Source of the DNA: Chrysomallon squamiferum
Lineage: Eukaryota; Animalia; Mollusca
NCBI GenBank assembly: GCA_012295275.1
Contig: CM022677.1
Coordinates: forward strand, 14,756,001-14,820,000
Length of the DNA: 64,000 nt
Direction of reading: 5' to 3'
The notes under the pieces were generated by a model that made no database searches, was not told where the DNA came from, and was given only the letters and a program-made list of their open reading frames with translations. Every line of letters begins with the position of its first letter. The first letter of the stretch is position 1. Of this stretch, positions 1,643-64,000 are shown in pieces. The translations under genes and the position numbers were made by a program.

Positions 1643-3138
1643 TTATTCTTCTGGATTTGTGGACCATGGCCGCTTGAATTCTTGACCCTTTTTTAGAAAC
1701 CAGTACGTGGCCACCCATTTAGAGCCAATCAGAACGGGACAAGCTCCATGAATTGTCATTTTGTTAGGTGAACCATTCCGATATAAATTATACCAAAATA
1801 TAGTTGCACCTGCTTTAGGTTGTATTCTTACACCAAGATGAAGAAACACTGTTGCATCTCCTTCTACATCACTCAACTAGTTTAACCACGTGGCAATTCT
1901 GTTTTCACGGCAAGAATCTGCTTTGTGGAAATAGTCAGCATGAGCCGTGAAGTACCCGCCTATTCCATAGTTTGCCACCTGAAGTCGCTCTGAAGCTTTC
2001 ATTGAAATACCTGTGATTGCTTGAATTCTTTTCTGAATTCTCAAGTCTGCTTCTATGCAACCTCTTCCTAAAAATGTATTTTTGCTCATTCTTTTCTCAG
2101 ATTTCACATGATTTCCAAAGTTATCGATTTCAGATGTTTTTAAAAGTGGCAAAGAAACTGTTGTAATGTCTTCAATTTCAGCATCACTGATAAAATCATG
2201 ATAGAGAACAATTTTCGGTGAGAAATGCAGAATCTCTTCTTTAGCAGGCTTAAGCATTAAAAGCGGACTTTTGATGTTGTAATGGTAGCGACATTTCAAA
2301 CGATGTCGCTGTCGTACTTTAATAACGTCTTCACCACGACAGAGAGCATCGAAAGTTGTTTTTTCTTTAACTCTGGCATTTTTTCTCTTTTCTTTCCTAC
2401 GTTTTGATATACTTGAATACTATTTTCTTCTGTTCGGAGCACGTTCAAGTCCACGAGCTAAAATTAACTGTTTATTTGTCAAATTTAAAACGTGTTCTAT
2501 CTGTCCCGCTAATTCTCTACCGTCTATTTCATAACCATGAAATTTTTCTGTTCTCACTTTCTCAAGACTTGTCTCCATCCAGATATGAACATATTTGTAT
2601 TTTTTCATTTTGTATGCAAGGCGACCTAATTGATAACAGTCTTCTGCTGATAATCTCTGTATATATCGTTCATGTATAAAACCGTCTGCTAATCTTGTCG
2701 CATTTAATTTGTACCTGTCCTGAAGTCGGAACAGAGCTGCAGCTGCCCCTTCTAAATCTTCGTAACTTGGAAGATGTTCACGAATTTCTTGTAGTTCAGT
2801 CAGCTCTGTCTGGGACGTAATACTTTCGTGAAAATAGGCTGCACATCTCGTTCCCAGTCCAACGTGAAACGTTTAATATATAAAAATGCACCAATTGGGT
2901 TGGCTATGTAACGATTTGGGTCTTTTAGTGCGATCGAACAGTCCTGTTCCATTTGATCTGAAATTGTTTTCAACTTTTCCAATTTAGTTCCTTGTTCATG
3001 AATGCGATTGAAATTTCTTAATGCTATTGCCAAGTCTCTTCCTGCTAGTACAGAGTTGTAGAGATGTGATACGGACGTAAACAGTTCTGAAGTCACAGCT
3101 GATAAAAGCAAAACTAAAACAATGTACTGCTGATACAT
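1643..3138 (-). pseudogene. P4HA: Intronless (processed-type) pseudogene of collagen prolyl 4-hydroxylase alpha subunit
   Basis: Signal peptide + ELFTS, NPIGAFLYIKR, (after a frameshift near 2810) LPSYEDLEGAAAALFRLQDRYKL, LSAEDCYQLGRLAY, FDALCRGE, LQVANYGIGGYFTAHAD (HxD), NRIATWLN, HGACPVLIGSKWVA. One frameshift and two in-frame TAG stops (2420-2422, 1877-1879, the latter at the conserved Tyr of WLNY). No introns; A-tract on the minus strand at 1509-1535, ~107 nt after the stop. Confidence 0.93.
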
Positions 3139-33533: not shown

Positions 33534-36154
33534 GTGTGTGTGTGTATGTGTGTGTGTGTATATATATAGAGAGAGAGTATGGATGCATTGAAAAGGATTT
33601 AGGAATGTTTGGATGTACATGGTGTGAGTGAGTGATTTACTTAGAGTTTGATGGGCAGATAAATAGACAAATATACATACCAATGGTCTGAATTTTGTGT
33701 CTGTGTGTAATGGTATTTTAAAAACTTCTAGTTTGTTTTGTTCTTAAAAACAAGTCTGGAAGAATGAAAAAAGAAGGATGCAAGCAAGATAGAAGTGCTT
33801 TACTTGTTTAAGTGATCAAAAACTCTTCTCAGTTTCCCTTCTTTTCTTAAAATTTACTAATTGTTAATTTCAATTTATTTATTTACATTTTGTTTTGTTT
33901 TATTGTACTTCCTCCTTTTTTATCTTATTATTATTAATACTACTACTTGTTCTGAAGTAAGTAGTCTGGATATTTATTATAATAATAAATAATTATGATA
34001 ATAGTAATGTGTTTAAGTACATATGTACATATGAATGCAGGGCTTGTAATGGCTAGTCGCCAAATGCTACCAAACTTCTGTTTGGATGACTGGGATGTTA
34101 AAAAAATTATGAGTTAGTTTCTGAAGAATATTTTTAAATCTTACTTCAATACATGTTTTCCTTTATAAACTGAAATATGAATCTGGTCAACTATATATAT
34201 ATGAATTTGTTCTCAAAAGATTCTATTATGCAAAATAAGCATACATTCCTAGTCTGTGATAGGAAAAAATACAGTTGTTGAGCCAGTAAATCTAATATTA
34301 AGTTGATAGGCGTCAGATTGAGAAAATTCTTTGATATATTTCTATGTCATTTGTTATACCATTTTCCCAGTATAGTGAAAGAAACACTTACCAACAAACC
34401 ATTATTAAAATAGTCCTACTTATGACTGAGAATTTGAAGCTTGACATGTTCAAACTTGAACAGACATTTACTATTTGAAAAGTAAACATAAATAATGTAA
34501 TTACGATATGTTTATTTATGTTCTTTGGTCTGGTTACAGGATTATCCTATTATTACATACTAAGTAGATTGGATTGTAATGGTGTATAGTTTTTTTTTTT
34601 TGTTGTAGTCTGGATGATTCTAACTAATAGTACATAAGCCCAGCTGACTGTTAAGAAGTTTTGTTTGTTTCAGTGTATAGCAGAAAATTATAATTATGAT
34701 AAATTAATTAATCACATTAGAAAATTATACCGGATTTTTTAAATACTTTTTGTTCTATATTTGTTTATTTAGACAAAACTGGCTAAATAGTAGAACAAAG
34801 TGACTTGTACATCAAACCAGATAGTTGTTTAAATGTTTAAATACAGCTATCATACCACCAGCACAAACTTTGGATCTTGTGATGTCCAGCATTTCAGAGG
34901 ATTTTCTTAACCAGCTTGTAAGACCTTTCAGGTAAGTCAGACAAAAGACAGATCAGTAGATTTTATATATTTTTTATTTGTTTTAATGAAGAAAAATAGA
35001 ATTTTAAATAATTATTTAAAAATATGTAACAACAACATGAATAGTAATAATATCAGCAGCAACAACCACCACCACCACAACAATAAGAAAAAGAATAATT
35101 AAAATAAAACAAACCTGTAAAAACCAGTACTTCATTTCTTGATTCTGTTTTATAAAAATTCCACGATATTCCTGAAAAATGTACCTTCCAAATGCATAGA
35201 CATCAAGTTGGTGGTAATTATGTTATAAACTGCCATTGATAAGAAAGAAGCAGATGTAAATCCTTACAACTCTGTTTCCTACCAGTTAAAACTTTATATA
35301 TGAGATGACACAGAAGTTATTAGTTTCCTTGTCAGTGTTGCAGTATCATATGATTGTCTGAATTATTTCATTCAGGATTCAAATCTGATATATATATTTT
35401 TTTTATGAATTAATTATATCATCTCATTCAAAACACTAGCAATTTATTATTATTAATTAATTAGAATTCTCGTTATCTTTTGGGATTAAAAGATTAGTAT
35501 TGTGGATAAATTTAATGTTGTACCAGATTATTAACTTATATTTTTAATCAAATCTAAAATTAGATGTATAGAATCAGTTCTAAGAGTTCCAAAAAAGTAA
35601 TGCAGCAAGTAATCAAAATGACTGAATTCACATACCTAGTGCAGAATGACATTAACATTTTGTTATTAGAACTGAAAAGCATTGGTATCTGTTATGATAT
35701 AGTTATCATGTGTCACTGTAAATTATTTTTTAGTTCATTCTATCAAGTTCTGTCAAATTGTTGTGATTCACTAACAGTTGTCAAAGATAAACATTTGTCC
35801 TTATTGTTGGATTTTTGACAATGATTTATGATTAGCAAGTCTGGTTATACCTTCAGTTGAAATGGCTCATTGGTCATTCTCTCTAGCTTTTTTCCCTAGT
35901 TTTCAATTCTGTTTATTTAAATCATGTAGAGTTATTGCATATATATGCATTTTATTTATACTGACATTTTATATTATGCTGAGATTTCCTTATTTCAGTC
36001 ATTGCAGACATTAGTTAAATTAGTTCAGGAAACACCTTTTGTGTTCAGCAGTTCATGTTGCATCCATCATTTTCATTAACTAGCAAAATATCAGCAATAT
36101 CCAGATTTGTTTTCCCATTAGGACAGCTGTCAAAACAGTATATTTTTATTTCAG

Positions 36155-36815: not shown

Positions 36816-37540
36816 GTATGTGTGAAATCAGTTCATAAAGAAAAACAGATCTATGTTAATTTTGTTGAAGATGTTTCTGAATGAAACATTCTACTTTACC
36901 TTTAATTATGTGAATCAAATTCATCTTTATTTTTATCTCTTTAGATTAGTTTTCAGTAAATAATTTGAATTGATAACTGCATCATTAAATATCATCAGAA
37001 TACAAAACAAAAGATGTAAAAAAGGTTATGTTTCAATTTTTAGTTTACTATAATTATATTGATTCATGCAGACTTAATTTATTTAATTGTTTTATAACAA
37101 GTAAATGTCAGTATTTAATCAGAATGTAATATTTTTATCAGAAGCTAATGTTAACTGTTATCTCATTACTTGCATTTTTTATTATTTTTATTAGCCCTAA
37201 TCAGATACACATTGATGAAAAAGACTGTTAATTCAGATTTTTTGTAAGAAAAAATAATGTAAATTATTTGTTGCTGAATTGAGAGCTCTTAAGAATATTC
37301 ATATCTTTGTTGTCACTGATGTACTTAATTAAGGACGGCAGTGTGTTGGCTTTTTTTTGTTGTTATTATAATTATTATTATTATTATTTTTTATTTTTTT
37401 TATTTTCTTACATTTTCCTTTCTCTGTATTTTCTTTTTTATCTTCTCAAGTCTTCCATGTCCTTGCTACTGCTGCTGCTGCTATTGTTGTTGTTGTTGTT
37501 GTTGTTGTTGTTATTATATATTTTTTTTAATTATTGACAG

Positions 37541-37740
37541 ATATAGCAACAGCTTCAGATTCCGATGATAGTCTTTCGTGTTGACTTTGTATGGACATTT
37601 TTGACAAGCTGCGAGTTCTGTATTGAGGACACTTGTTCTGCACCAAATGTCTGCAGGGCTACATAAACAACACTTACAACAACAATGAGATAAAACTGTT
37701 CTTGTCCTGTTTCCATTCTGGTGTCAGGTGCAGACAAAAG
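37541..37740 (+). pseudogene. Disabled TRIM-type RING exon, left copy
   Basis: Paralog of 55293-55495 with ATG changed to ATA and two Cys codons changed to TGA. Confidence 0.75.
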
Positions 37741-38224: not shown

Positions 38225-39365
38225 TGTAACTAGACACGATGCATTGCCTTGAACAGACTCACTGACAGGGTAGTACATACCACAGTCTGTAATATACTAG
38301 AATGATGCACTGCCATGAACAAACACACTCACTGACAGGATAGTACATACCACAATCTATAATAGACTAGACATGATGCATTGCCATGAACAAACACACT
38401 CACTGACAGGATAGTACATACCACAGTGTAATATACTGGACACGATACACTGCCTTCAACAGACTAACAGACAGGATAGTACATACCACATTCTGTAATA
38501 TATTAGACACGATGCACTGCCTTCAACACAGATACTCACTGACAGGATAGTACATACCACATTCTGTAATATATTAGACACGATGCACTGCCTTCAACAC
38601 AGATACTCACTGATATGGTAGTACATACCACATTCTGTAATATATTAGACACGATGCACTGCCTTCAACACAGATACTCACTGATATGGTAGTACATACC
38701 ACAGTCTGTAATATATTAGACACGATGCACTACCTTGAACAAACAGACTCACAGACAGCATAGTACATACCACAGTCATTAATATACTAGACACGATGCA
38801 CTGCCTTCAACAGACTCACAGACAGGATAGTACATACCACAGCCTGTAATATACTAGACACGATGCCCTGCCTTGAACAAACAAACTCACTGACAGGATA
38901 GTACATACCACAGTCTGTAATATACTAGACACGATGCACTGCCTTGAACAAACAAACTCACTGACAGGATAGTACATACCACAGTCTGTAATATACTAGA
39001 TACAGTGCAGTGCCTTGAACAGACTCACTGACAGGGTAGTACATACCAGAGTCCGTAATATACTAGACAGCATGCACTGCCTTAAACAAACAGACACGCT
39101 GACAAGGTAGTACATACCACAGTCTGTAATATACTAGATACAGGGCACGGCCTTGAACAAACAGAGTCACTGACAGGGCAGTACATACCAGAGTCTGTAA
39201 TATACTACACACGATGCACTGCCTTAAACAAAGAGACACGCTGACAAGGTAGTACCTACCACAGTCTGTAATAGATACAGGGCACAGACTTGAACAAACA
39301 GACTCACTGACAGGATAGTACATATCACAGTCTGTAATATACTAGATACAGTGCACTGCCTCGAA
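38225..39365. repeat. ~67-71 bp minisatellite, ~16 copies (inverted partner 53488-54752)
   Basis: GTACATACCACAGTCTGTAATATACTAGACACGATGCACTGCCTTGAAC core recurs at 38273, 38343, 38414, 38479, 38550 etc. Confidence 0.95.
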
Positions 39366-40749
39366 CAAGCAGTCAGCCATATTCAATTGTGGACTGGAGT
39401 TGGTGAAGAGTAAAGATATAAAATCAACATTAGTTATACCTTTCATCTTCAAATCCGAAAATAATTTTAGAAAGAAACTACATCAGAATCTTACCAAACT
39501 CAGAATCAGGTACTCAACTAATCTAAACTCAATCAAATTCAGAAACAAAACATTTTTCCAGTGAACAGATTTGCTCACAGTTCAATAAACAAGATGTACT
39601 GGCTTACCTTATTTTGCCAACATCTAAACTGAAATATCAAAATTCTTTATTAATTAAAATGCCCAGAGAAATTGAGTCCTACTTATTCAAATCAGCTGGT
39701 AATAAATTTTGAAACAAACTATTTTTTTATTATTATTATTATTCCGGATAAGTAACCGTACTGGAATTGAAAAGGAAAAGCATTGCAAAAACAAGGTTAT
39801 AGAGTTATCTCCCATGATAACTTGTTCCGTTAACCAACCGATCATTCTTTAACCTGACGGTGTAAGAGTTCGCTAGATTTGCTCGTTGGCTTCACTTTAG
39901 CGAACTAATACTTGAATTAATAAGGAAAATCAATAGCAAACTCTTGCTGATAGAGTTATAGCCTGTGATAAACTGTTTTGTTAACCAACCGATAACTCTA
40001 TAACGTTAAGGTTGGAAATGTTAGTTGGCTTCACTTTAGCATTAATGTGTATAAATAGATTTTGGCAAATACGGTAAGCCGATACGTCGAACTTATGAAA
40101 CTATGAACAATCCTTTTATGTGAAATAAATATTTGAAATAAAATTATTAACAGTGGCTCTTTTGTTATAACGTATAGAAAAAATATGGTGAAAAATGTCC
40201 ACATATATTGGATTCAAAAGATATAGCACTACAGATCCACTACATGTAACACAAGCGACATATATCATATATCATACCCCACTGTAATAGCCGTAAATCT
40301 TCCTAAACATCTCCCCGATAATGAGAACCAGTTGTTTAAACCGTAAGTGAGAATGTTGATCGAGTGATCACTTTTCTCCTTCCATTTACTTGTTGTCCTT
40401 GTAGTGAGACAGAGCGGGATGTGAATATGACACCTGATGACAGACATCATCACAAAATGTAAACGCTGCTCCTGTAAGACGCTCATCAGCATAGTAATCC
40501 TCATAACTTACACCTCTCTGCAGTTGTTGTGAAAAGTAAGTCAGAAACTCTTTCTGAAAACTCTCCTCAAACTGAGATTTCGCTCAAGTACTTTTGGCTC
40601 AGTTGCTGCTGCAGGGTAACAGAGGCAGTTCGTTACTGAGGACAGTCACATGTTCTGCGTGTGTGTGTGTGTGTGGGAGACAGAGACATGTCGCAGATTT
40701 TATTACATAATAAAAATTATTATTCAGTATTTTTATTATTATTAAATGT

Positions 40750-42986: not shown

Positions 42987-43186
42987 NNNNNNNNNNNNNN
43001 NNNNNNNNNNNNNNNNNNNNNNNNNNNNNNNNNNNNNNNNNNNNNNNNNNNNNNNNNNNNNNNNNNNNNNNNNNNNNNNNNNNNNNNNNNNNNNNNNNNN
43101 NNNNNNNNNNNNNNNNNNNNNNNNNNNNNNNNNNNNNNNNNNNNNNNNNNNNNNNNNNNNNNNNNNNNNNNNNNNNNNNNNNNNNN
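42987..43186. other. Assembly gap (200 N)
   Basis: Run of N. Confidence 1.
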
Positions 43187-50720: not shown

Positions 50721-51573
50721 ACATATATAAATATATTTATTAATATTAATATTAATATCTAAGATCCGTCAATATTTTAGGCACAAAATCTCTCCCAGTG
50801 AGATAAAATATCATCGATGCTTTATTATCAATGTTTTCTGCAGTGTTTATCATTTCTTTTACTGAAGTTTTAATTACAGCGACACCTGCACTTATCACTG
50901 TAATCTGAGAGGTAGATAGGTAGGTGGATAGACAGATAGACACACAGATAGATGGAGAGTGAGACAGACATACATATATAGAGATAAATCCATATACAGA
51001 CATACAGACACACAGAGAGATAGAAAACCCCCAAACTGAACTGAATAATTAAAATGTCCAATAAAAGAAAAGTTGTGAAAAGCGAGGTTAATGTGATATT
51101 ATATAATAATGCATGTACAAACATTTTCTTACAAGTTCATTTGCCTATAAAATGTAAAATGTCTGTCTATCTCTATATCCATCAATGTATCTATCTGTCT
51201 GTTATTTAACTATATACATAAACACCGTCTCACTGATATCAACTTACGTATATAACTATCCTCTAAGGCAAACACGTATACCAAACTATTTCTTTTCTAT
51301 GTGTGTGTGTCTATCTCTCTGTCTGTTTATTTGTTGATAATTGTTTCTTTCTTTATAATGAAGACTGTAATACTGACATAACGACATTAACGATAAAAGC
51401 AGCAACACTTATTGCAATAATACTACATAAAATGATAAACAAAAAAACAAAAAAAATTCTGAGTAGTTAGGTCCTCGAATTTATTGTACTGATTATTGCT
51501 ATATAATCATTGTTTACTACTAATAATAATTAATCCTAATCGTAATACAAGTCAGATTCAAAACTTCAATAAA

Positions 51574-52075
51574 CTAAACTCCTTGACAAATATCACACAA
51601 GAATACAATATCTTTAAAGTCTGCACCAGCTGGGATTTCAAGATTTGCGCAAGAATCAAGACAATACCAATTTGGGCACCCGTCACATCCTATGAACTCG
51701 TCAGAATTCATTCCATCATCAACTCTGCCACAGAGTTCACAATTGTCTTGTGTATTACTACATCTCTGTCTTCCAGTTCAGGCTCATCACCATCAGCGTT
51801 TTATTTGACTGCATCCACCGGTTCTGCTGTAGCATTCAAATTGAACTGCCGTTTTGACTTTCGTATCTTCTATTTGTTTGTTGTTGTAATTTTGCCTCTA
51901 AAACATTTGCTTTCTTTGCCTTTTCTTCCTCCTCCTTCTTCTTCTCTGCCGACTCTTCTTCATACCTCTTGACACTTTCTTCCTCTGTCAGTGCCTCGGC
52001 ATACCTCATCCTCTTGATTTTATTTGAAGTTTGACAACGTGCCCACCAGATGAACCATGGACTTTCAACTATTTC
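51574..52075 (-). pseudogene. Second copy of the coiled-coil + PHD-like transposase tail
   Basis: Reverse complement of 42540-42986; encodes CELC..DEFIGCDGCPNWYCLDSC..FLCDICQGV*. Confidence 0.6.
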
Positions 52076-52657
52076 AAAAAACTTAAATAAAACTCAGAAT
52101 AGACTATATCAATGCCAAAACTATTGATTTCACTAGCAAATATGGGGGCCAAGAAGTGTCTATAATATCTTCCGTTAAAGAGCACATTAATCACAGAACC
52201 TATAATACTTAATTACCACATAATATCTGGTAAAATAAAATAATCCATCTGAGTAGAGTAATCTGGAGAGTGAGAGAAAGAGACAGTAAGAAAGCCTAAG
52301 GGAGATATTTATATGTCATAAGTACATACACTTCTGTTGGTCTGTCTGTCTTTCTGGATATAGAAGGGGCTTTCAAATTAATGGCACTGTATTCGAAATC
52401 AGAAAATAGTAGAAATACCCTGTGTATTCATCTGTTCATCTATCTTCAGTAACTATATCTGTATGTAGGTATTTCTATTTATCTATCATAATCTATCTAT
52501 TTAACCAATTAAATGTTATTATATTAATGTACTAATTAGCCATTCCCTTTGGAAATGTTGCCACACATACACCACGGTGTGGTTTAGTACACGTAGGGGA
52601 TGTTAGTAATGGTTAGTATTTGTTAAATGTTAGTATTTGTTAAATGTTAGTCTGTCA

Positions 52658-52770
<113 letters not shown>

Positions 52771-53169
52771 ACTCGCTCTGTTCTCTCAACACAAAATTAA
52801 CAATTTTACGCTCTGGAAATCATTATATTTGTGAAATTGAAATAACGTGTCAGGATGAAAAGGCTGAAAAACAGTATTTACATGTATTTGAAATTTTTAT
52901 ACTACATTTTTACAGTGAAATGAAATTTTTATGAAACCAAACAAACTTACAGTCATAGTGAAATCCAAATATCTCTTTCTCTAATCATAACAAATAAAAT
53001 ACAGAAATTTTCACGTATCAAAACGGAATTTCGTAACAGATTTAAATTCTTGACCTTATTTTTACTCTGAATAGCATGAATGAAAACATATTAAGGTTTT
53101 AATAAAGAAACATTTTAAATATGTGAAATATCTTAAGAATGCACAGAAATACTACTTCTACCACTGCTG

Positions 53170-53202
<33 letters not shown>

Positions 53203-53487
53203 ATAATAATAATAATAATAGTAATATATAAAAAGCCCTGACGTATCACCGGTAGTGGGAGGAGTTAGACATATCGGCTTACCGTTAATACACATTAATG
53301 CTAAAGTGAAGCCAGCTAACATTTCCAACCTTAACGTCATAGAGTTATCGGTTGGTTAACAAAACAGTTTATCACAGGCTATAACTCTATCAGCAAGAGT
53401 TTGCTATTGATTTTCCTTATTAATTCAAGTATTAGTTCGCTAAAGTGAAGACAACGAACAAATCTAGCGAACTTTTACACCGTCAGG

Positions 53488-54752
53488 TGAGTCTGTTTGT
53501 TCAAAGCAGTGCATCGTGTCTAGTATATTACAGACTATATACAACCCTGTCACTGAGTCTGTTCAAGGCGGTGCACTGTATCTAGTATATTACAGACTTG
53601 GGTATGTACTACCCTATCTGTGAGTCTGTTTGTTCAAGGCAGTGCACTGCATCTAGTATATTACAGACTTGGGTATGTACTACCCTATCTGTGAGTCTGT
53701 TTGTTCAAGGCAGAGCATCATCTCCAGTATATTACAGAATGTGGTATGTACTATCCTGTCAGTGAGTCTGTCCAAGGCAGTGCAATGTGTCTAGTATATT
53801 ATAGACTGTGGTATATACCATCCTATCAGAGAGTCTGTTTGTTCAAGGTAGTGGATTGTGTCTAGTATATTACAGACTGTGGTTTGTACTATCCTGTTAG
53901 TGAGTCTGTTGGTTCAAGGCAGTGCATCTTGTCCAGTATATTACAGAATGTGGTATGTACTATCCTGTCAGTGAGTCTCTTGAAGAATATTACAGACTGT
54001 GGTATGTACTACCCTGTTAGTGAGATTGTTTGTTCAAGGTAGTGGATTGTTTCTAGTATATTTAAGACTGTGGTATGTACTATCCTGTCAGTGAGTCTGT
54101 TTATTGAAGGTAGTGGATCTTGTCTAGAATATTTCAGACTGTGGCATGTACTATCCTGTTAGTCAGTCTGTTTGTTCAAGGCAGTGCATCGTGTCTAGTA
54201 TATTACAGACTGTGGTGTGTACCACCCTATAAGTGAATCTGTTTTTTCAAGGCAGTGCTTCTTGTCCAGTATATTACAGACTATGGTATGTACTACCCTG
54301 TCAGTGAGTCTGCTCAGGGCAGTGCACTGTATCTAGTATATTACAGACTAGGTATGTACTATCCTGTCAGTGGGTCCGATCAAGGCAGTGCACCGTGTCT
54401 AGTATATTATAGACTGTGGTATGTACCACCCTATGAGTGAGTCTGTTTGTTCAATACAGTACATCTTGTCCAGTATATTACAGACTGTGGTATGTACTAC
54501 CCTGTGAATGAGTCTGTTCAGGGCAGTCCACTGTATCTAGTATATTACAGTCTGTGGTATGTACCACCCTATGAGTGAGTCTGTTTGTTCAAGGCAGTGC
54601 ATCTTGTCTAGTATATTAGAGACTGTGGTATGTACTACCCTGACAGTGAATCTGTTTGTTCAAGGCAGTGCCTCGTTTCTAGTATATTACTCTCTGTGGT
54701 ATGTACTACCCTGTCAGTGAGTCTGTTTGTTCAAGGCAGTGCCTCGTTTCTA
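53488..54752. repeat. ~67-71 bp minisatellite, ~18 copies
   Basis: Reverse complement of the 38225-39365 unit. Confidence 0.95.
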
Positions 54753-55292
54753 GTAGAGACAGTGTTTTTTATATCAGGTCATTCATGAAAACTTATATAA
54801 TTTACCTGTACTATATTAATTCAAAATGTTATTGATAAAAAGAGAACTAAAAGAATATAACATCTAAAATGTGATATTATAATACTTGTTGTTTTTGTCA
54901 GTCACTGAACGAGTGATGGAAATTTGACTGTTCATGAATTGTTTTTTTTATATGCTATTTATTTTAAAATACTAAATAATGCAATCAACACTAAATAATG
55001 TCTCCATATTATTTAAGTTAAAAAACTATATAACTGTTTCACATGAATAAAGTATTATAAAATGTATTACTAACTTTCACCTAGATAATAAAATTTAAAA
55101 AACCCAAGCAAATAATAAACACATCCACAAAACACATGCACACACACTGACACACAAAACACCCACCCAAGGTAAAAGTGCTTTACCATGTTAACAGATG
55201 GTGGAGAGGAAGTTTCGTATCTGTTTATCGGTGAGTTTCTTTCTAAACAAAAACATTTTACACAGTAATTGTTATAATCACTAACAACAGTT

Positions 55293-55495
55293 TTACTTTT
55301 GTCTGCACCTGACACCAGAATGGAAACAGGACAAGAACAGTTTTATCTCGTTGTTATTGTAAGTGTGGTTTATGTAGCCCTGCAGACATTTGGTGCAGAA
55401 CAAGTGTCCACAATACAGAACTCGCAGCTTGTGAAAAATTTCCATACAAAGACAACACAAAAGAATATCATCAGAATCTGAAGCTGTTGCCATAT
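55293..55495 (-). pseudogene. TRIM-type RING finger first coding exon, truncated
   Basis: Acceptor CAG then AT-ATG; MATASDSDDILLCCLCMEIFHKLRVLYCGHLFCTKCLQGYI..; final CxxC is degenerate and no B-box ORF follows. Confidence 0.75.
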
Positions 55496-55629
55496 CTGTT
55501 AATAATAAAAATTAAAATAATAATAATAACAACAACAACAGCAGCAGCAGTAGCAAGGACATGGAAGACTCGAGAAGATAAAAAAGAAAATACAGAGAAA
55601 GTGAAATGTAAGAAAATAAAAGTAAAAGA

Positions 55630-55671
<42 letters not shown>

Positions 55672-56017
55672 CATAATAATAATAATAAAAACAACAACAA
55701 AGAAAAGCCAACACAATGCCGTCCTTAATTAAGTACATCAATGACAACAAAGATATCAATAAATTCTTAAGCGCTCTCAATTCAGCAACAAATAATTTAC
55801 ATTATTTTTTCTTACAAAATATCTGAATTAACAGTCTTTTTCATCAATGTTTATCTGATTAGGGCTAATAAAAAATATAAAAAATGCAAGTAATAAGATA
55901 ACAGTTAACATTAGCTTCTGACAAAAATATTACATTCTGATTACTTTTTACCTTAATTTTTTATACAAATGTCATTATCATCTTTGTCAATTAAAGAGAA
56001 AGACAGTGTCAACTCAC

Positions 56018-57766
56018 TTGTTCTCTTCAAGTTCTGTTTGATATTTTTTGTGTGATTGTTTAATGTTCCCAACATGATTAACCATTACCTCCATTGTACA
56101 ACTGAGTCTCATCTCCTACAAAAACACACAATTATATTTGAACTGATTTTACTTGTAGAATTCTCTGGTCATTAATTATCCTTTTATAAATAAATAAAGA
56201 AATAAAGAAATAAAAAGTTAGAGTAAAGTAAAAAGAATCTTAAAATCAGACTGCCATTTCATGGCAGGTGTCTTTATAACTGAACAAATAATTAGTCCTT
56301 AGTGATTCTACGGATTCTTTCAATAAATGAGATATGTGCAGACAAAGCATCAGTATACAATAATTGCTAATCATTTTCATGATTTTACAAAAACAAATAT
56401 ATTACATTTTTATGTAAGTTGCTTAATTCACTGTAAGAAAACTATTTTGCATAGAATTTTGTGAAAGACTGAAGAAATATTTAAAACTGAAATAAAATGA
56501 ATAATGTATTTAAATACCTGCCGGACAGCACCAAATACTTCAACTCTACTGGAGACTTGAGCTGCTCTTTGTTCCAAAATGTCAGTCTGAGTTTGTATTT
56601 ATCAACAATTTCTTGAATATTTCTATCCTTAACAAGCTGATTTAACCTCTGAAAATAAACAGTTTAAATCCAGTTTAGTATATTGGTTTCTTCAGTTCCT
56701 ATAAATACATGATGAAAGATCTGAATGTCATTCAGTAAAAACTGACATTTACTTGTTATAAAACAATTAAATAAATTAAGTCTGCATGAATCAATATAAT
56801 TATAGTAAACTAAAAATTGAAACATAACCTTTTTTACATCTTTTGTTTTGTATTCTGATGAGATTTAATGATGCAGTTATCAATTCAAATTATTTACTGA
56901 AAACTAATCTAAAGAGATAAAAATAAAGATGAATTTGATTCACGTAATTAAAGGTAAAGTAGAATTTTTCATTCAGAAACACCTTCAACAAAATTAACAT
57001 AGATCTGTTGTTCTTTATGAACTGATTTCACACATACCTCAACATCAATCCTTAAGCCATGTAGTTCTTGGTCCATGTTCTTTTCAGCAATGTCCCACAA
57101 CCTTTCTTGACTCTCTTTTCTCTGCTCTTGAGTTAATTTGTCCATCTTGAAGGTCAGGAACTTAGTCTAGTTAACATACCAAAAATAAACTGTAATATAT
57201 AAATTCAATCAAAACACTAATGTAAGAACATTCAAGTCACATTACACTGAAAATAATAAAGTATGTTAATAAAATAATAAGCAGACATTTCATTAGTTGC
57301 ACATCATTTTGTAAATAGGAAACATAAATTCCCTGATAGTCTGAGCAAGAGATACATATTCTGTGTATACATGAGTGAGAGTGTGTGTGTGTGTGTTTTT
57401 TAATATTTGTATCTATAATATGGCTTTTTAAATAGGAAAATTATCTCTTTTCATAAGCTTGTTATTTCATTTTCAGACTAAACTGAGTGAAGATTGTCTA
57501 GTATAATAAGTTAAAGATAAATGTGTAACTAGAAAAACTATTACTACATTTAATAAACACTAAAAGCATACACCATCTCCAAAACAAAGAACCTACACTA
57601 ACTGAATAAATAATCATTTTTCACATATGTATTGTTTACCACATTGAAAGATCTCAATGACAAAAATTATTCTAAAAGTAACAAATAACATCTTTAAGTA
57701 AAATTCTAAGTAAATGCAGAATAGAAATTTACTCACTTTGACTTCTTCATCTGAGAAGTTGGTGAA
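56018..57766 (-). pseudogene. IRAG/LRMP (MRVI1-family) exon fragments, right copy (57766-57737, 57166-57038, 56648-56518, 56115-56018)
   Basis: Four AG/GT-bounded exons: FTNFSDEEVK; TKFLTFKMDKLTQEQRKESQERLWDIAEKNMDQEL..; RLNQLVKDRNIQEIVDK/QTQTDILEQRAAQVSSRVEVFGAVRQ (131 nt, 1-bp frameshift); EMRLSCTMEVMVNHVGNIKQSHKKYQTELEEN. Matches recalled LRMP motifs AARVASRAEMLGAINQ and ESRVSKAVEVMIQHVENLK. A further putative exon lies at 58960-59117. Confidence 0.82.
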
Positions 57767-58532
57767 CTGAAATAAAAATATACAGTCGAGACAGTTGTCC
57801 TAATGGGAAAACAAATCTGGATATTGCTGATATTTTGCTAGTTAAGGAAAATGATGGATGCAACATGAACTGCTGAACACAAAACGTGTTTCCTGAACTA
57901 ATTTAACTAATGTCTGCATGACTGAAATAAGGAAACCTCAGCATAATATAAAAAGTTATCATAAATAAAATGCATAAACATGCAAAAACTCTACATGATT
58001 TCTATAAACATAACTGAAAACTAGGGCTGAAGATATCATGTCATGTTAGATGTAATTATACATGTTTTAATCAGTTGTTTGCTCAAACCTGTATTGTGGG
58101 ATTCAGTATACACAGTGCAGACAAGATTACACAATCAGAAGACTAACCAAAAAACCCAGATAGAAATGCATTTAATACCACCTTGAAACTGAGATATTGA
58201 GCAAGGTGTAACCAGACTTGCTATAATTAGTTGTCAAAAATCCCACAATAAAGGGCAATTGAGTATTTTTGAGAAATGTTACTGAATCCCAATAATGTGT
58301 ATAAATGTTTAGAAACTAAAAAATAATTTACAGTGACACATGATAACTATATCATAATAGACACCAATGCTTTGCAGTCCTCATAACAAAATGTTAATGT
58401 CATTCTGCACTAGGTATGTGAATTCAATCATTTTGTTTACATATTGCATTATGTTTCTGGGACAGCATAGAATTCTAATTAATTAATAATAATTTATTGC
58501 TAACATTTTGCATGAGATGATATAATTAATTC

Positions 58533-58586
<54 letters not shown>

Positions 58587-59867
58587 TTAGAATCTTGAAC
58601 AAAATAATGCAGACAATCATACAATACTGCAACACTGACAAGGAAACTGAATTGATTCTGGGGCATAAAACAGAATCAAGAAAGTAAGTACTGGTTTTTA
58701 CAGGTTTGTTTTATTTTAATTATTATTAGATTTATTGTTGTTGTGGTGGTGGTTGTTGCTGTTGATATTATTACTACTCATGTTTCTATTACATATTTTT
58801 AAATAATTATTTAAAATTCGATTTTTGTTCACTAAAACCACCCCAAAGAACCATAATTAATATCCCTTCCTCTCTCCCTGCAAAAATAATAATTAAAAAC
58901 ATTTAAAAATATCAAACTACAAGTATAAAATCTACTGATCTGTGTTGTATCTGACTTACCTGAAAGGTCTTTCTGTGTCTTTTAACCCAAGCTGGTCAAG
59001 AAAATCCTCTCAAATGGTGGACATCCAAAGTTTGTGCTGGTGGTACGATAGCTATATTTAAACAACTATCTTGTTTCATGTACAAGTCACTGTTTTCTAC
59101 TATTTAGCCAGATTTGTCTAAATAAACAAATATAGAACAAAAAGTATTTAAAAAATCTGGTAGAATTTTCTAATATGATTAACTAATTTATCATAATTGT
59201 AATTTTCTGTTATAAACATAAGACTTTTTGACAGCATGCTGGGCTTATATACTATTAGTTAGAATCATTCAGACTATTACAAACTGTACATCATTTCAAT
59301 CCGATCTACTTATAATAATAGGATGATCCTGTAACCAGACCAAAGAACATAAACAAACATATCGTAATTACATTATTTATGTTTACTTTTAAAATAGTAA
59401 ATGTCTGATAACCGTTACAGTAAGTTCAAGTTTTAACATGTAAAGATTCATTTTCTCAGTCATAATTTGTTTGTGTTTTTTTTTTTTTTCCACTATACTA
59501 GGAAAATGGTAGATACAAATGAGTATATCAAAGAATTTTCTCAACCTATCAACTGAACTAAATATTAGATTTCCTGGCTTAACAACTCTATTTTTAACTT
59601 TTCCCAGACTAGGAAAAAAATGAAGAGAATGCTACATTATTTGCTAGATAGAAATTTTTTATTTCCCATTTTAATTTTTATTTAACTTAACTTATTAATT
59701 TTGTTATATTATTGCTTTGTTTATTCTTGGCATTTTATTATTTTGTTGCTGTTGGTGTTGTTGTTTATTGTTTGCTCAAAATCAATTAGCTTGATTGTTA
59801 AATAAACAGACTAGGTTTAAAATCTGCAGATAAAATATTTAAAAAAATAGATTTCCTGGCTTAACAA

Positions 59868-59917
59868 CTTAAGGTGACTAGCTCCTTCGGGCGTAGCCCG
59901 AGCCCTACGGTCATAAG
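59868..59917. other. Imperfect GC-rich hairpin, candidate viral terminal hairpin remnant
   Basis: CTTA..TGAC.TAG..TCGGGC-GTA-GCCCGA..CTA..GTCA.TAAG; nested self-complementarity in otherwise very AT-rich DNA. Confidence 0.6.
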
Positions 59918-60269
59918 CTAAAAGTACATATTGGCTTTCAAGGCCAAAAACCAAAAACCATTCGTGTTATACATTGTTTTTTCAATAATAAGCAAGAGTT
60001 GGGTTGGGATCTATCAGGTCCCAAATTGTATAACTAATATTATTATAATATATATAATTAATTATTTATTATATATGTAATATTTAATCTATATATTAAT
60101 TAATATAATTATATATTATTATGTTAATATTTACATATTACAATGATAACAAATTCATATAAACTTTAAATATTTATTTAAATAAAATATTAACATATTA
60201 TAACATTGAATTATTAACAATAACGCATTTCCGATATACACTGATTGTATATTACTGTTCATCTTTATA

Positions 60270-60275
60270 TTTATT
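60270..60275 (-). terminator. AATAAA polyadenylation signal of NS1
   Basis: Starts 9 nt after the stop at 60284; further AATAAA at 60173-60178. Confidence 0.5.
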
Positions 60276-60283
60276 AAATATGT

Positions 60284-62457
60284 TCATTTGTGTCTCAGGT
60301 ACAGTTTCATTGAACATACATTCGAAAGGTTGAAACGTTTTTCTGCTGGATTTTCTGGTTCATTGTCAACTGTAATAAACGTAGGATCCATTGATTCTTC
60401 TGATATATCTTCTATTTCTACTTCATATCTTTTACGTTTAATTCCCTTAGAATCTTGCATATCTGCTTTGAGTTTATTTTGTGACAAAATAAACATGTCT
60501 TGTGAGGGATTGTATGTATCATCATCATCCGAATCCGAAATGATAACATATACTGGATCATCCAGTTTGTTTTGAACTGAATTTATATGTTCATTATGTT
60601 GATTTGTATGTTCTACTATGGTATCAGCATGAACATTATCATCTTTGAATTAAATCTGACTGTCGTCGAAGTTATCCGTAAAATAACTGAAACGGCCTTC
60701 AAACGTATTGTCATTTATGTGAATGTTATTTGTATTATTGAAATAGTCTCTATCGTTCTCCATTGCAATGTTCATCTCGTCGTCAGACGGTTCCCTCCCA
60801 ACTGTAAATAATTTTGGATGTAAAAGATTGTAACATTGTTTCAAAACATTGCTGCGTTTTAAACCTTGAATTAAAAATAGTCGTGTTTTCATAATGCTGA
60901 TTTGGGACGTAGTAAGTCCGTCCCCAAACTTATTATTTGAGTTCAATAAACAGATGTTTCCACGACAGTAACAAGGGGTGGTACCTTTACGTTCGCACGT
61001 AGCCTTGCTACCACTCAACAAATCCTTGTATTTATCAATGTTAGTTTGATTTATAGATATTTCTTCGCCAAGAATGATTTTCTTCCCACCAAGCATTTGC
61101 CAAGGAAAATTATCCTTGGCAATTTTTCCAGCTGTAGGTACAGATTCAAACATGGAACTAGACATCATTGTTTTTCCACTATCTGAATCTCCTTGAAAGT
61201 AAACGCCTATCTTTTTTTTTCCCTTGCCTTTGAGTAATGAAACAATTAATGTGTACAGCCATCGTTCTTGTATGTCTTGCTCTCTGCACCAGGAGTTAAA
61301 AATCTTAAAACTATCGTCTGGTGTCATATAATGATCAATGTCATTGTTCATCATCTCTATTTGTTCATATGCTGACTTATCAGACTGTTCCTCCGTGTAT
61401 TTGGCTCTAGCAGCTTTAAATAGCTTATCACCAGATGAATTAGCAACGGCATTGCACAAGGCTTTGAACTCGTTACTGTTAGTATCGAATTTACCAATCA
61501 AATGATTTAATTTATTTATATCAGGAAATTGTTTTATCAATTTATAAAAAAAAATCTAATGTTTCAGCAGATTTGTTGTTGATCAGGTGTGATGGAATAG
61601 ATGCTTTGTCAATTGTATCTTTATCATTAATTGGTACATCTGCTGTATCCATGGCTTCAATGATAATATTTTTTCTTTTTTGATTTCATTTGCTGACATT
61701 CCGATAACTGTATTTACTGATTCTTCTTTAGACGTAGTTCCATTATCTTTTCTTATAGGTTCTCTAATTTTTGATGTTGTTAATGTTTTATCTAAATGTT
61801 TTGATCCAGATGCATCAAAGAAATCATTAAGGATGTTCCAGATATCTTTGTCATCATCATGAATTTCTTTTTCCATTTCATTCCATATGTTCAACATTGA
61901 TTGATCGGTCGTGCCTAAAAATAGTTTTTCAGAGTCATTCATTAGATATTTCATGTATTCTTGAACAGATGTTCTCTGTGGATCCTTTAGTTTCAGTATT
62001 TTTAAGTATCCATTCTCATTTAGAACGGCTCGATGCAAGCGGCGATATTGCCTGTCTTGCGAGGGTGTTTTCAGAGTCGTCTTCCAAATAATATGGCAGT
62101 GAGTTCCATATGTAGGATGATTTGAAATAGCCTGACATTCTTTTTGGTGATAAACCATTAATGTCTTCCATGATTTATTTCTCAAAAACGCTTTTAATTC
62201 GTTTATCACACGGTCTTGACCCTTTGAAAGGTACTCATAGTTAGGCGTGGCCCAATGGTCAACAGTTTTAATATTTCCTGATTATCCATCTGGTATGACT
62301 TGATGAAATTCTTACCAGTCGCATATATAAATTTCCCTTCTTTATCTTTTGCGAGACACCGAGGAACCAGATATTTCGGGTGAACCATGTCATAATTGAC
62401 ATGACCCACCAAAACACTGTAATATGTATCTTCTGGAAGATCAACGAACCTATCCAT
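60284..62457 (-). pseudogene. NS1: Parvoviral NS1/Rep (HUH endonuclease + SF3 helicase), ~720 codons when reassembled
   Basis: HUH GTHCHIIW and YMKYL; Walker A GDSDSGKT, Walker B IILGEE, B' KDLLSG..ERKG, motif C LLNSN, RLF. ORFs 62206-62463, 61583-62209, 60650-61540 and 60284-60496 join via frameshifts near 62280, 61670 and 61550 and an in-frame TAA at 60650-60652. Confidence 0.92.
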
Positions 62458-62477
62458 TTCCAATAATGTATTTTCAT
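62268..62477 (-). CDS. Small ORF overlapping the NS1 start (possible accessory NS protein)
   Basis: First ATG after the predicted transcription start, 20 nt before the NS1 ATG; no recognisable domain. Confidence 0.25.
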   Translation of the reverse strand: MKIHYWKWIGSLIFQKIHITVFWWVMSIMTWFTRNIWFLGVSQKIKKGNLYMRLVRISSSHTRWIIRKY

Positions 62478-62513
62478 ATAATATGTTCTTTACGTTAAGA
62501 GATAACAGTAACG

Positions 62514-62582
62514 ACTGAAAACTTTTGAACGTTTCTTTATTTATAACGTTTAAAACATTACGTCATATATATGACGTCATAT
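62514..62582 (-). promoter_or_regulatory. Putative NS1 promoter: CRE-like sites, TATA box, initiator
   Basis: TGACGTCA 62572-62579 and TGACGTAA 62558-62565; TATAAAT 62545-62539; TCAGT 62518-62514 with its A 29 nt from the TATA start. Confidence 0.65.
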
Positions 62583-62649
62583 GGTGTACGTGACAAAATG
62601 AACGTAACGTTATTAAAAGACTAATCACTGTATTCATACGCTTAATATT

Positions 62650-64000
62650 TTATAATGGATATGACCAGTCATTTCCATTCCCCATAGTTTCTAATGTTCT
62701 ATCACCATATGCACCATGTAATGGCCATAATTGTCTACGTCTATTTCTACGTTTATTCCAATTATCCCATATGGGTGGAAACGTTCTCATTTTCCATGTT
62801 GTATTTATTCTTTCTTTATATTTAGCAGCATCTTCACCTAAAAATTGATCTTGTTCAGGATGTTTAACATTATCTTTATTACCCATTGGAGTAGTATCAT
62901 CTTTTTTAAATATTAAACCTTGCATAGTACCAGGACATCCTCCTAATCCTATTGGAATATATTTTGGACACATGCCAGTCCGTACAATAAATTCAATCTC
63001 ACTATAATATGTTATCTGAATGTTAGCATGATAATTGAAAAATAATGTATTTCCTCCACTTGTTTTCTCAATGTCAGGATATAATCCAATTAAGAACATA
63101 GGAGGTCTGTTACATTGATATGTACGTCTATGTGAGCCATCTTTACAAACATCAATATTAGGATTATTTGCATTATTATGCATAACTCCTTGATTACTCA
63201 TTTTTGTCCCTCCATCATCTACCATAGATGGTGCACCAAGTACATTAGATGCCTTATTTTGAAAACAAGCTGTATAATGTATACGTCTGTATTGATGATT
63301 AAAATAACAACATATTGCAGTTCCCATTGGATGTTCTGTAGTATTGGTAACTACTATATCATGTGTTGGCCAAACCTCTAAATTACCTTTATTTTCGTTA
63401 GCACATTGATATTTAGATTTAATACATAATCCAGATATATCTGTAAAGTTAAGTGTATGTGATGTTTCTGATGGAAATAAAACGGTTGGTGAGTCTTTAC
63501 AGGTATAATCTAATGCAAAACCCCTGAACTAATTACAGTTTCTCTGTATCCATCATGTTTTTTCATGTCATATATATAATTAGGAGAGAATGTTTTATAT
63601 TCTAATCCATCACCTGTCCATGCATGATTTAATAATTGCATAGCCATATCACTTGGTAAATATAATTTTCTATCTGGTTGAACAGGTATACTTCTGTTAC
63701 TAATATCATCCATACATTCTTCATCTTTAAAATAGTAATTATGTGATAAATTTAATTTTTTTTCAGGCAAACCATAATCATTATTTACATCTGTAAATGT
63801 CCACACACGAGAATTTGGTGGTGCCATTACAGGTACTTCATTAGGATCAGATTTATTATTGTTTAAAACATGAACAATCATATTATTTATATTAAATCCT
63901 ATTCGTTTTACTCTATAACCCATAAAATCATCAGGTAAATTCCAATCATTAGCAGTAGTACTAGCTGCTTTATACCAATATGGTATTATATGCCCTCCAT
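62650..64000 (-). pseudogene. Parvovirus-like capsid (VP) gene, 5' part outside the window, one frameshift near 63520
   Basis: Open from the window edge: GGHIIPYWYKAASTTANDWNLPDDFMGYRVKRIGFNINNM (betaC-alphaA-betaD-like), FTDVNNDYGLP, RPPMFLIGLYPD..YHANIQITYYSEIEF (betaH/betaI-like), basic KRRNRRR near the C-terminus; the shifted frame is open from ~63520 into ORF 62650-63327. Confidence 0.75.

Follow-up and report, generated by a model that had tools for sequence, protein, structure and literature searches.

A decayed, probably endogenous parvovirus-like element with a capsid-like gene ahead of NS1 in Chrysomallon squamiferum

Layout and decay of the element

We analyzed a 64,000-nucleotide stretch of DNA from the mollusc Chrysomallon squamiferum (GenBank assembly GCA_012295275.1, contig CM022677.1, positions 14,756,001 to 14,820,000), referred to here as the window. 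A parvovirus-like element of 4.1 kb occupies its end (59,878-64,000). The element lies on the minus strand and consists of a capsid-like (VP) gene, a spacer, NS1, a polyadenylation signal, an AT-rich tail, and a short hairpin. A first-pass annotation of the window had described this layout, and the open reading frame (ORF) calls recovered every part at the place where it had been described, with the capsid-like gene ahead of NS1 on the same strand. The intergenic region, estimated at about 190 bp, measured 192 bp (62,649-62,458). The predicted polyadenylation signal was found as an AATAAA directly 3' of the NS1 stop codon (60,275-60,270), and the distance to the hairpin, given as about 350 bp of AT-rich tail, measures 382 bp when counted from the NS1 stop. 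The tail behind NS1 (60,040-60,283) is very AT-rich, with a GC content of 4-10% at 60,051-60,200. A search against Rfam gave no match within 57,000-64,000.

NS1 runs in pieces from an ATG at 62,457 to a stop at 60,284 and comprises approximately 720 codons. Three frameshifts (near 62,270, 61,690, and 61,550) and one in-frame stop (60,652-60,650) interrupt the gene. The N-terminal piece (62,206-62,457) begins with an ATG that aligns with residue 1 of related proteins and shows 48-55% identity over the first ~60 residues to three of them, designated P0002, P0025, and P0115. The adjoining nuclease region (61,545-62,281) carries an HUH motif at 62,101 and a candidate catalytic tyrosine at 61,948; both the His-x-His and the tyrosine form invariant columns in an alignment of 30 NS1 sequences. 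In the superfamily 3 (SF3) helicase region (60,650-61,555), Walker A is located at 61,192, Walker B near 61,070, and motif C near 60,945. This helicase piece (61,555-60,650) matched the Pfam family Parvo_NS1 (PF01057) with an E-value of 8.7e-9 and 35.2 bits (cut-off 20), and it also matched solved parvoviral NS1/Rep proteins. The best solved structures obtained with a profile of the NS1 family were the Rep protein of adeno-associated virus (E 1e-13) and another parvoviral NS1, and PF01057 was matched by 29 of the 30 aligned relatives. At the level of the family Parvoviridae, the element thus shows the expected NS1 with an HUH endonuclease and an SF3 helicase. All three NS1 pieces down to 60,650 align to the relatives P0001, P0002, and P0025. 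Behind the in-frame stop, the frame is kept for another 121 open codons that encode an acidic tail (60,284-60,649). No significant protein match was obtained for this tail (60,649-60,284); 10 of its 13 listed differences from related copies lie at third codon positions.

The capsid-like gene is broken once, by a frameshift near 63,520. Its upstream piece (63,510-64,000; ORF 63,998-63,510, 162 aa) is open at the 5' side, where the window ends, and its downstream piece (62,650-63,528, 292 aa) continues in another frame and has a basic patch near the C-terminus. We compared the breaks with contigs assembled from sequencing runs (X1 to X4). Difference-free contigs of run X1 cross the capsid frameshift and all three NS1 frameshifts, and those of run X2 cross the first NS1 frameshift. 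Where they could be checked, the breaks are therefore not assembly errors. The in-frame stop at 60,652-60,650 was bridged by no listed read contig. The decayed NS1, the capsid-like ORF, and the host duplication that adjoins them in the assembly support the earlier view that the locus is an endogenous parvovirus-like element. The same broken sequence is present in runs of two studies, and this copy is likely inherited in the germ line of the host.

The spacer between the two genes (62,458-62,649) probably contains the NS1 promoter, overlapping a possible polyadenylation signal of VP. Two CRE-type sites (62,579-62,572 and 62,565-62,558) are followed by TATAAA (62,545-62,540), by AATAAA (62,541-62,536), and by TCAGT (62,518-62,514). 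The AATAAA overlaps the TATA box and is the first such signal after the VP stop, and the TCAGT lies 27 nt behind the start of the TATA box; we take these motifs to be cyclic-AMP response elements, a TATA box, a polyadenylation signal, and an initiator. The word ACGT occurs 8 times in the 192-bp spacer and 209 times in the whole 64 kb. Folding of the spacer gave a z-score of -0.87 relative to shuffled sequences, and a hairpin of telomere size is absent, in agreement with the earlier observation that no large hairpin separates VP from NS1.

Relatives of NS1 and of the capsid-like protein

An NS1 search among 1.84 billion representative proteins yielded 110 proteins at E <=0.001, 31 of them at E <=1e-30. 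For all 22 relatives looked up, the cluster annotation gives no protein name. A helicase tree was calculated from 87 rows, namely the window piece and 86 of 116 proteins; the other 30 were dropped for lack of a Walker A match with enough flank. The tree took in no classified virus, and the level of subfamilies is outside its reach. The window NS1 grouped with P0001 (support 99/92), then with P0002 (100/98), inside a clade of 37 rows (100/98). Its helicase piece is 67% identical to P0001 and 54% to P0002, and the values for P0001, P0002, and P0025 range from 54 to 67%. The nearest NS1 relatives of the window copy are P0001, P0025, P0115, and P0116, which come from ENA, and P0002, which comes from Logan. 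Three of these proteins (P0025, P0115, and P0116) are truncated, and the contigs that carry them measure 61-452 kb, a setting that points to endogenous copies in another assembly. The four ENA proteins, on contigs of 8-452 kb, likely represent a second endogenous family in another genome. No related locus was found in the viral contigs, metagenome contigs, or phages searched.

Three further members of the 37-row clade (P0015, P0018, and P0022), whose helicase regions are 32-37% identical to that of the window, correspond to deposited viral proteins. NS1 proteins of this type are contained in the supplement of Buck et al. (2024; bioRxiv 10.1101/2024.03.25.586562, PMC11071296); here and below, statements on this source refer to the portions of text and supplement covered by our search. 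P0015 and P0018 agree in start and length with Parvo6835_NS1 and Parvo7226_NS1, respectively. P0022 fits Parvo7324_NS1 in its start and helicase and, judged by eye, Parvo7825_NS1 in its tail; it is either a recombinant or a chimeric assembly. The corresponding records are Parvovirus sorex6835 (BK066838), apodemus7226 (BK066305), anser7324 (BK066733), and anser7825 (BK066677). All four come from metagenomes of shrew, wood mouse, and goose and were deposited as linear sequences of 6,835-7,913 nt (PMC11071296). In each of them, the protein list runs from an extra ORF (NSx, 6p3, or Cah) through VP to NS1. The first 400 nt of Parvo7226 show, by eye, a hairpin-like end, and the first ORF lies on the plus strand ~140 nt from the left end. 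Gene order is not discussed in the searched text of the paper.

By its position in the tree, the window NS1 is assigned to the same supported clade as the Parvo6835/7226/7324/7825 type. The locus had been proposed to represent an undescribed lineage. This proposal is not supported, since Buck et al. (2024) had already deposited relatives whose protein lists place VP ahead of NS1. The group seems to be present in GenBank but uncharacterised. New are the direct view of the same-strand order, the likely germ-line host, and the apparently large family of copies.

The capsid-like protein points to the same relatives. Residues 5-78 of the upstream piece align with Parvo7324_VP without gaps and with 34 of 74 positions identical, a count made by hand to which no E-value is attached. 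The downstream piece contains the motifs YDMK-x-H, RPP-x-F, and a PIGLGG-type motif in the same order as the VPs of Parvo6835, Parvo7226, Parvo7324, and Parvo7825. This likeness to proteins annotated as VP by Buck et al. (2024) favors the earlier description of the upstream ORF as capsid-like over an NS2-type protein. Judged from the alignments, the ORF is predicted to be the VP of the Parvo6835/7226/7324/7825 group and to share their VP type, where "VP" is the annotation of Buck et al.; a capsid fold of the single jelly-roll type would be expected for such a protein. The region of Parvo7324_VP that is matched by the window follows a glycine-rich stretch and has its start near residue 300. A VP portion of several hundred bases should therefore lie beyond position 64,000, perhaps together with another ORF. 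Inspection of the relatives' VPs by eye revealed no evident phospholipase A2 (PLA2) motif. Pfam gave no capsid match for either VP piece, and PDB sequence searches with the pieces returned nothing significant, with three matches at chance level. Leads from the ESM Atlas, namely CUB-domain clusters (0.89) and hypothetical or tail proteins of phages (0.92-0.94, with low shared-feature counts), were set aside because they were unaligned and conflicted with the motifs matched directly.

VP is also listed ahead of NS1 in deposited parvoviruses of other types, namely Parvo5722 from octopus and 6935, 7277, 7597, and 7906 from clams (first entries only for 6935). These lists suggest that a structural-first layout may extend past the clade described here. 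Parvovirus octopus5722 was considered as a parent of the element and rejected, since its VP is likewise listed first but its VP and NS1 types differ by eye.

Further copies in sequencing reads

At least half of the words of the element were found in two of seven listed samples, which belong to two studies, and the five other listed samples, among them X3 and X4, contained 5-6%. No RNA sample was among those listed as holding words of the element. On 60,300-64,000, we counted 192 contigs in run X1, 175 in X2, 323 in X3, and 213 in X4, most of them less than 95% alike to the element. Up to 8-11 different contigs occur at one place, and identical loose ends recur in several runs. The summed depth, which is not a copy number, reaches far greater values over VP and the helicase core than elsewhere in NS1. 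This pattern agrees with numerous diverged copies in which both genes are present.

The differences between the element and its related copies are not evenly spread over codon positions. Of 753 differences, the 40 with the best support were listed; 37 of them fall into coding pieces, and 27 of these 37 occupy third codon positions (p ~1e-6). This bias indicates that the copies diverged while their genes were functional, and the simplest account is that they were distinct viral strains before they integrated. The host thus appears to hold many further copies, which would derive from different, selected viral strains.

Origin of the gene order and place among known parvoviruses

Two explanations for the capsid-first order had been offered initially, a natively swapped cassette order and an integrant from a circularised or concatemeric genome opened between NS and VP. 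The first is the better of the two, in view of the short, promoter-like spacer and the VP-first relatives. In the spacer, signals for termination and for a promoter are interleaved and remnants of telomeres are absent, in keeping with an internal promoter, and a promoter-like, hairpin-free spacer implies that the order is probably native and no concatemer junction. We therefore consider it probable that the locus is an endogenous element, now decayed, from an unclassified group of parvoviruses in which the structural genes natively precede NS1. This arrangement, with NS1 behind the structural genes, has likely been kept from a lineage of large, unclassified parvoviruses. In such a genome, VP and perhaps another ORF would be transcribed from a left-hand promoter located past 64,000. 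The VP transcripts would terminate in the spacer, and a CRE/TATA promoter within the same spacer would likely drive NS1. The HUH nuclease and SF3 helicase of NS1 would then replicate the genome from terminal hairpins, as established for the family.

Other copies of the element also bear on the order. Single contigs join VP or spacer to NS1 with the strand unchanged, in run X1 (62,608-62,695 joined to 61,599-62,534) and in run X4 (61,957-62,697). Several points weigh against a native capsid-first order or against the evidence used for it. These joints are represented by one contig each, with 85% likeness and short sides of 28-75 nt. The order in the deposited relatives is known from protein lists, which carry no strand, so that a flipped ambisense layout is possible there. 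Two of the four relatives are labelled Cah, and most Cah-bearing parvoviruses may be circular (PMC11071296). Single-sequence structure predictions of the two VP pieces were of low confidence, with predicted local distance difference test (pLDDT) values of 28 and 30, and protein searches with the 292-aa piece among longer and similar-length proteins found no relative. Furthermore, run X1 is possibly the source of the assembly, and the codon-position bias was counted on a best-supported subset of the differences.

The circularity reported for Cah-bearing viruses, two of which (coelastrea5797 and haliotis6016) were deposited as circular (PMC11071296), leads to a different explanation. The parent genome might have been circular, or it might have integrated through a circular or concatemeric intermediate, so that the VP-NS1 order would merely reflect the point at which the circle was opened. 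An NS1 end without a clear telomere agrees with such an origin. However, all four relatives of the same type are linear in the database and share one common order, and Parvo7226 begins, by eye, with a hairpin-like end. For a concatemer of an ordinary NS-VP genome in particular, the spacer lacks any trace of joined telomeres. We regard a circular origin as unlikely.

The lack of a clear telomere directs attention to the hairpin at the end of the element (59,878-59,901, minus strand), which may be a Helitron-type 3' end or a remnant of a viral terminal hairpin. It consists of a 6-bp GC-rich stem (59,901-59,887), followed by a gap of 5 nt, CTAG, and a T (to 59,877). Three folds of this stretch gave z-scores of -0.75 to -1.55 and were no more stable than shuffles. 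Drawn alternatively as one ear of a small branched structure, it again folded no better than shuffles. The hairpin is therefore weak evidence for a telomere. Its existence behind NS1 had been recognized correctly from the start, but it does not have the value for a native order that had been attached to it. Helitrons end 3' in a short GC-rich hairpin that is followed by CTRR, and they insert between A and T. A scan of both strands of the 64 kb for a hairpin combined with CTRR-T gave a single match, which lies 382 bp past the NS1 stop; 12 shuffled windows together gave one. A Helitron-type end accounts for the hairpin no less well than a viral telomere does, and what ends the element may be a remnant of the virus, a short Helitron adjoining it, or a terminus of its own.

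If the hairpin and CTAG formed the element's own 3' end, the element could have been carried or spread as a Helitron-type rolling-circle transposon, with the capsid-NS1 cassette as cargo or engine. The 175-323 contigs per run, mostly less than 95% alike, would suit such a spread. On the other hand, the match concerns a single junction and a generic rule, and CTAGTC occurs also in a host repeat that flanks the site. The third-position bias is better explained by independent viral strains than by one broken cargo that was copied passively. The likeness to a Helitron 3' terminus at 59,901-59,877 occurs once, and the helicase of the element belongs to SF3, whereas the RepHel protein of Helitrons combines HUH with an SF1 helicase; neither a RepHel gene nor a 5' end was identified. 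By title or abstract opening, the literature searched for Helitrons together with parvoviruses contained nothing on the topic. Carriage as a Helitron is doubtful in our estimate; it would affect only the end and the spread of the element and is compatible with a native VP-first order. The same low expectation applies to the broader picture of a capsid-first lineage that recurrently colonises the germ line as a virus-transposon hybrid, with Helitron-type hairpin-CTAG ends, rolling-circle insertion, tens of copies, and selection on its coding sequence.

Finally, it is very improbable that the relatives have an ordinary ambisense genome shown in reversed orientation and that a rearrangement during or after integration produced the same-strand order of the window: the protein lists of the relatives give no strand for NS1, and an upstream ORF and VP facing the NS gene is the layout of ambisense densoviruses in the part of PMC9896142 consulted, but the inversion would have had to carry NS1 with an intact promoter and land 70 bp behind the VP stop, diverged other copies keep order and strand, and in Parvo7277 and Parvo7906, from clams and of a related group, an overlapping ORF implies from the list order that NS1 runs rightward behind VP.

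The DNA outside the element is AT-rich (~30% GC) and rich in microsatellites. Self-comparison of the window showed that the adjoining host flank (58,203-59,869) is part of an inverted duplication. Its arms (51,500-59,615 and 43,000-34,246) are 78-90% alike, and the element lies just past one of them. Within the flank, 58,924-59,615 matches 34,967-34,246 at 78%, and 59,842-59,869 repeats 59,560-59,587. The hairpin region (59,870-60,040) was considered as a paralogue of the host segment near 34,000, which was rejected at a score of 22 against a background mean of 19 (sd 2.3). Each arm contains a RING-finger exon (55,296-55,511 and 37,525-37,740; 87.5% protein identity) and one of two related tandem arrays with a unit of ~69 bp (38,229-39,372 and 53,480-54,755). 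An assembly gap of 200 N (42,987-43,186) marks the end of one arm. At the other side of the window (1,877-2,872, minus strand), two abutting intron-less ORFs are separated by one stop; the upstream ORF matches prolyl 4-hydroxylase alpha domains, and the pair resembles a processed pseudogene.

An NS cassette ahead of VP, or an ambisense arrangement, is treated as the parvoviral ground plan. A native capsid-first order would mean that rolling-hairpin replication does not dictate the order of the cassettes and that such viruses need their own early and late control. The deposited relatives, from shrew, mouse, and goose metagenomes, may be dietary, and the germ-line copy would assign a definite animal host to one branch of the lineage. 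The multi-copy family provides material for dating the lineage. The literature searched, which left most subscription journals outside, held no description of a capsid-first same-strand order or of this lineage. In the parts consulted, one study reports mollusc sequences outside known genera (PMC5013282), and two others describe only the usual parvovirus layouts (PMC11357303, PMC9896142).

The classified Parvoviridae comprise six subfamilies (PMC13426907, as far as consulted). The element resembles them in an NS1 with HUH and SF3 domains and in two main cassettes. They are, however, organized as NS-then-VP or as ambisense genomes in the literature sections consulted, whereas the window shows a capsid-first order on one strand; with VP upstream of NS1, it departs from the monosense parvoviruses, in which the NS cassette is upstream of VP. 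A link to the invertebrate hamaparvoviruses, initially suggested by the helicase spacing as judged by eye, is not supported. The VPs of Hamavirinae are said to begin at strand beta-B in the portion of PMC13426907 consulted, and those of the relatives carry 200-300 residues ahead of the shell region, a long N-terminus that argues against the link. The same portion describes the SwaBA megaparvoviruses, which are large, unclassified parvoviruses with additional cassettes; endogenous viral elements of beetles served to assign their host group. Compared by description only, that group differs in its order of PLA2 ORF, unknown ORF, NS1, and VP and in its Hamavirinae-like VP (PMC13426907). The closest known systems are the four records of Buck et al. 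(2024), with which the element has in common the NS1 clade, the VP type, and a VP listed ahead of NS1. Those records are apparently whole genomes with an NS1 of 930-1,090 aa, whereas the window copy is probably endogenous and is broken, with an NS1 of ~720 codons, and forms a separate sub-branch with P0001 and P0002.

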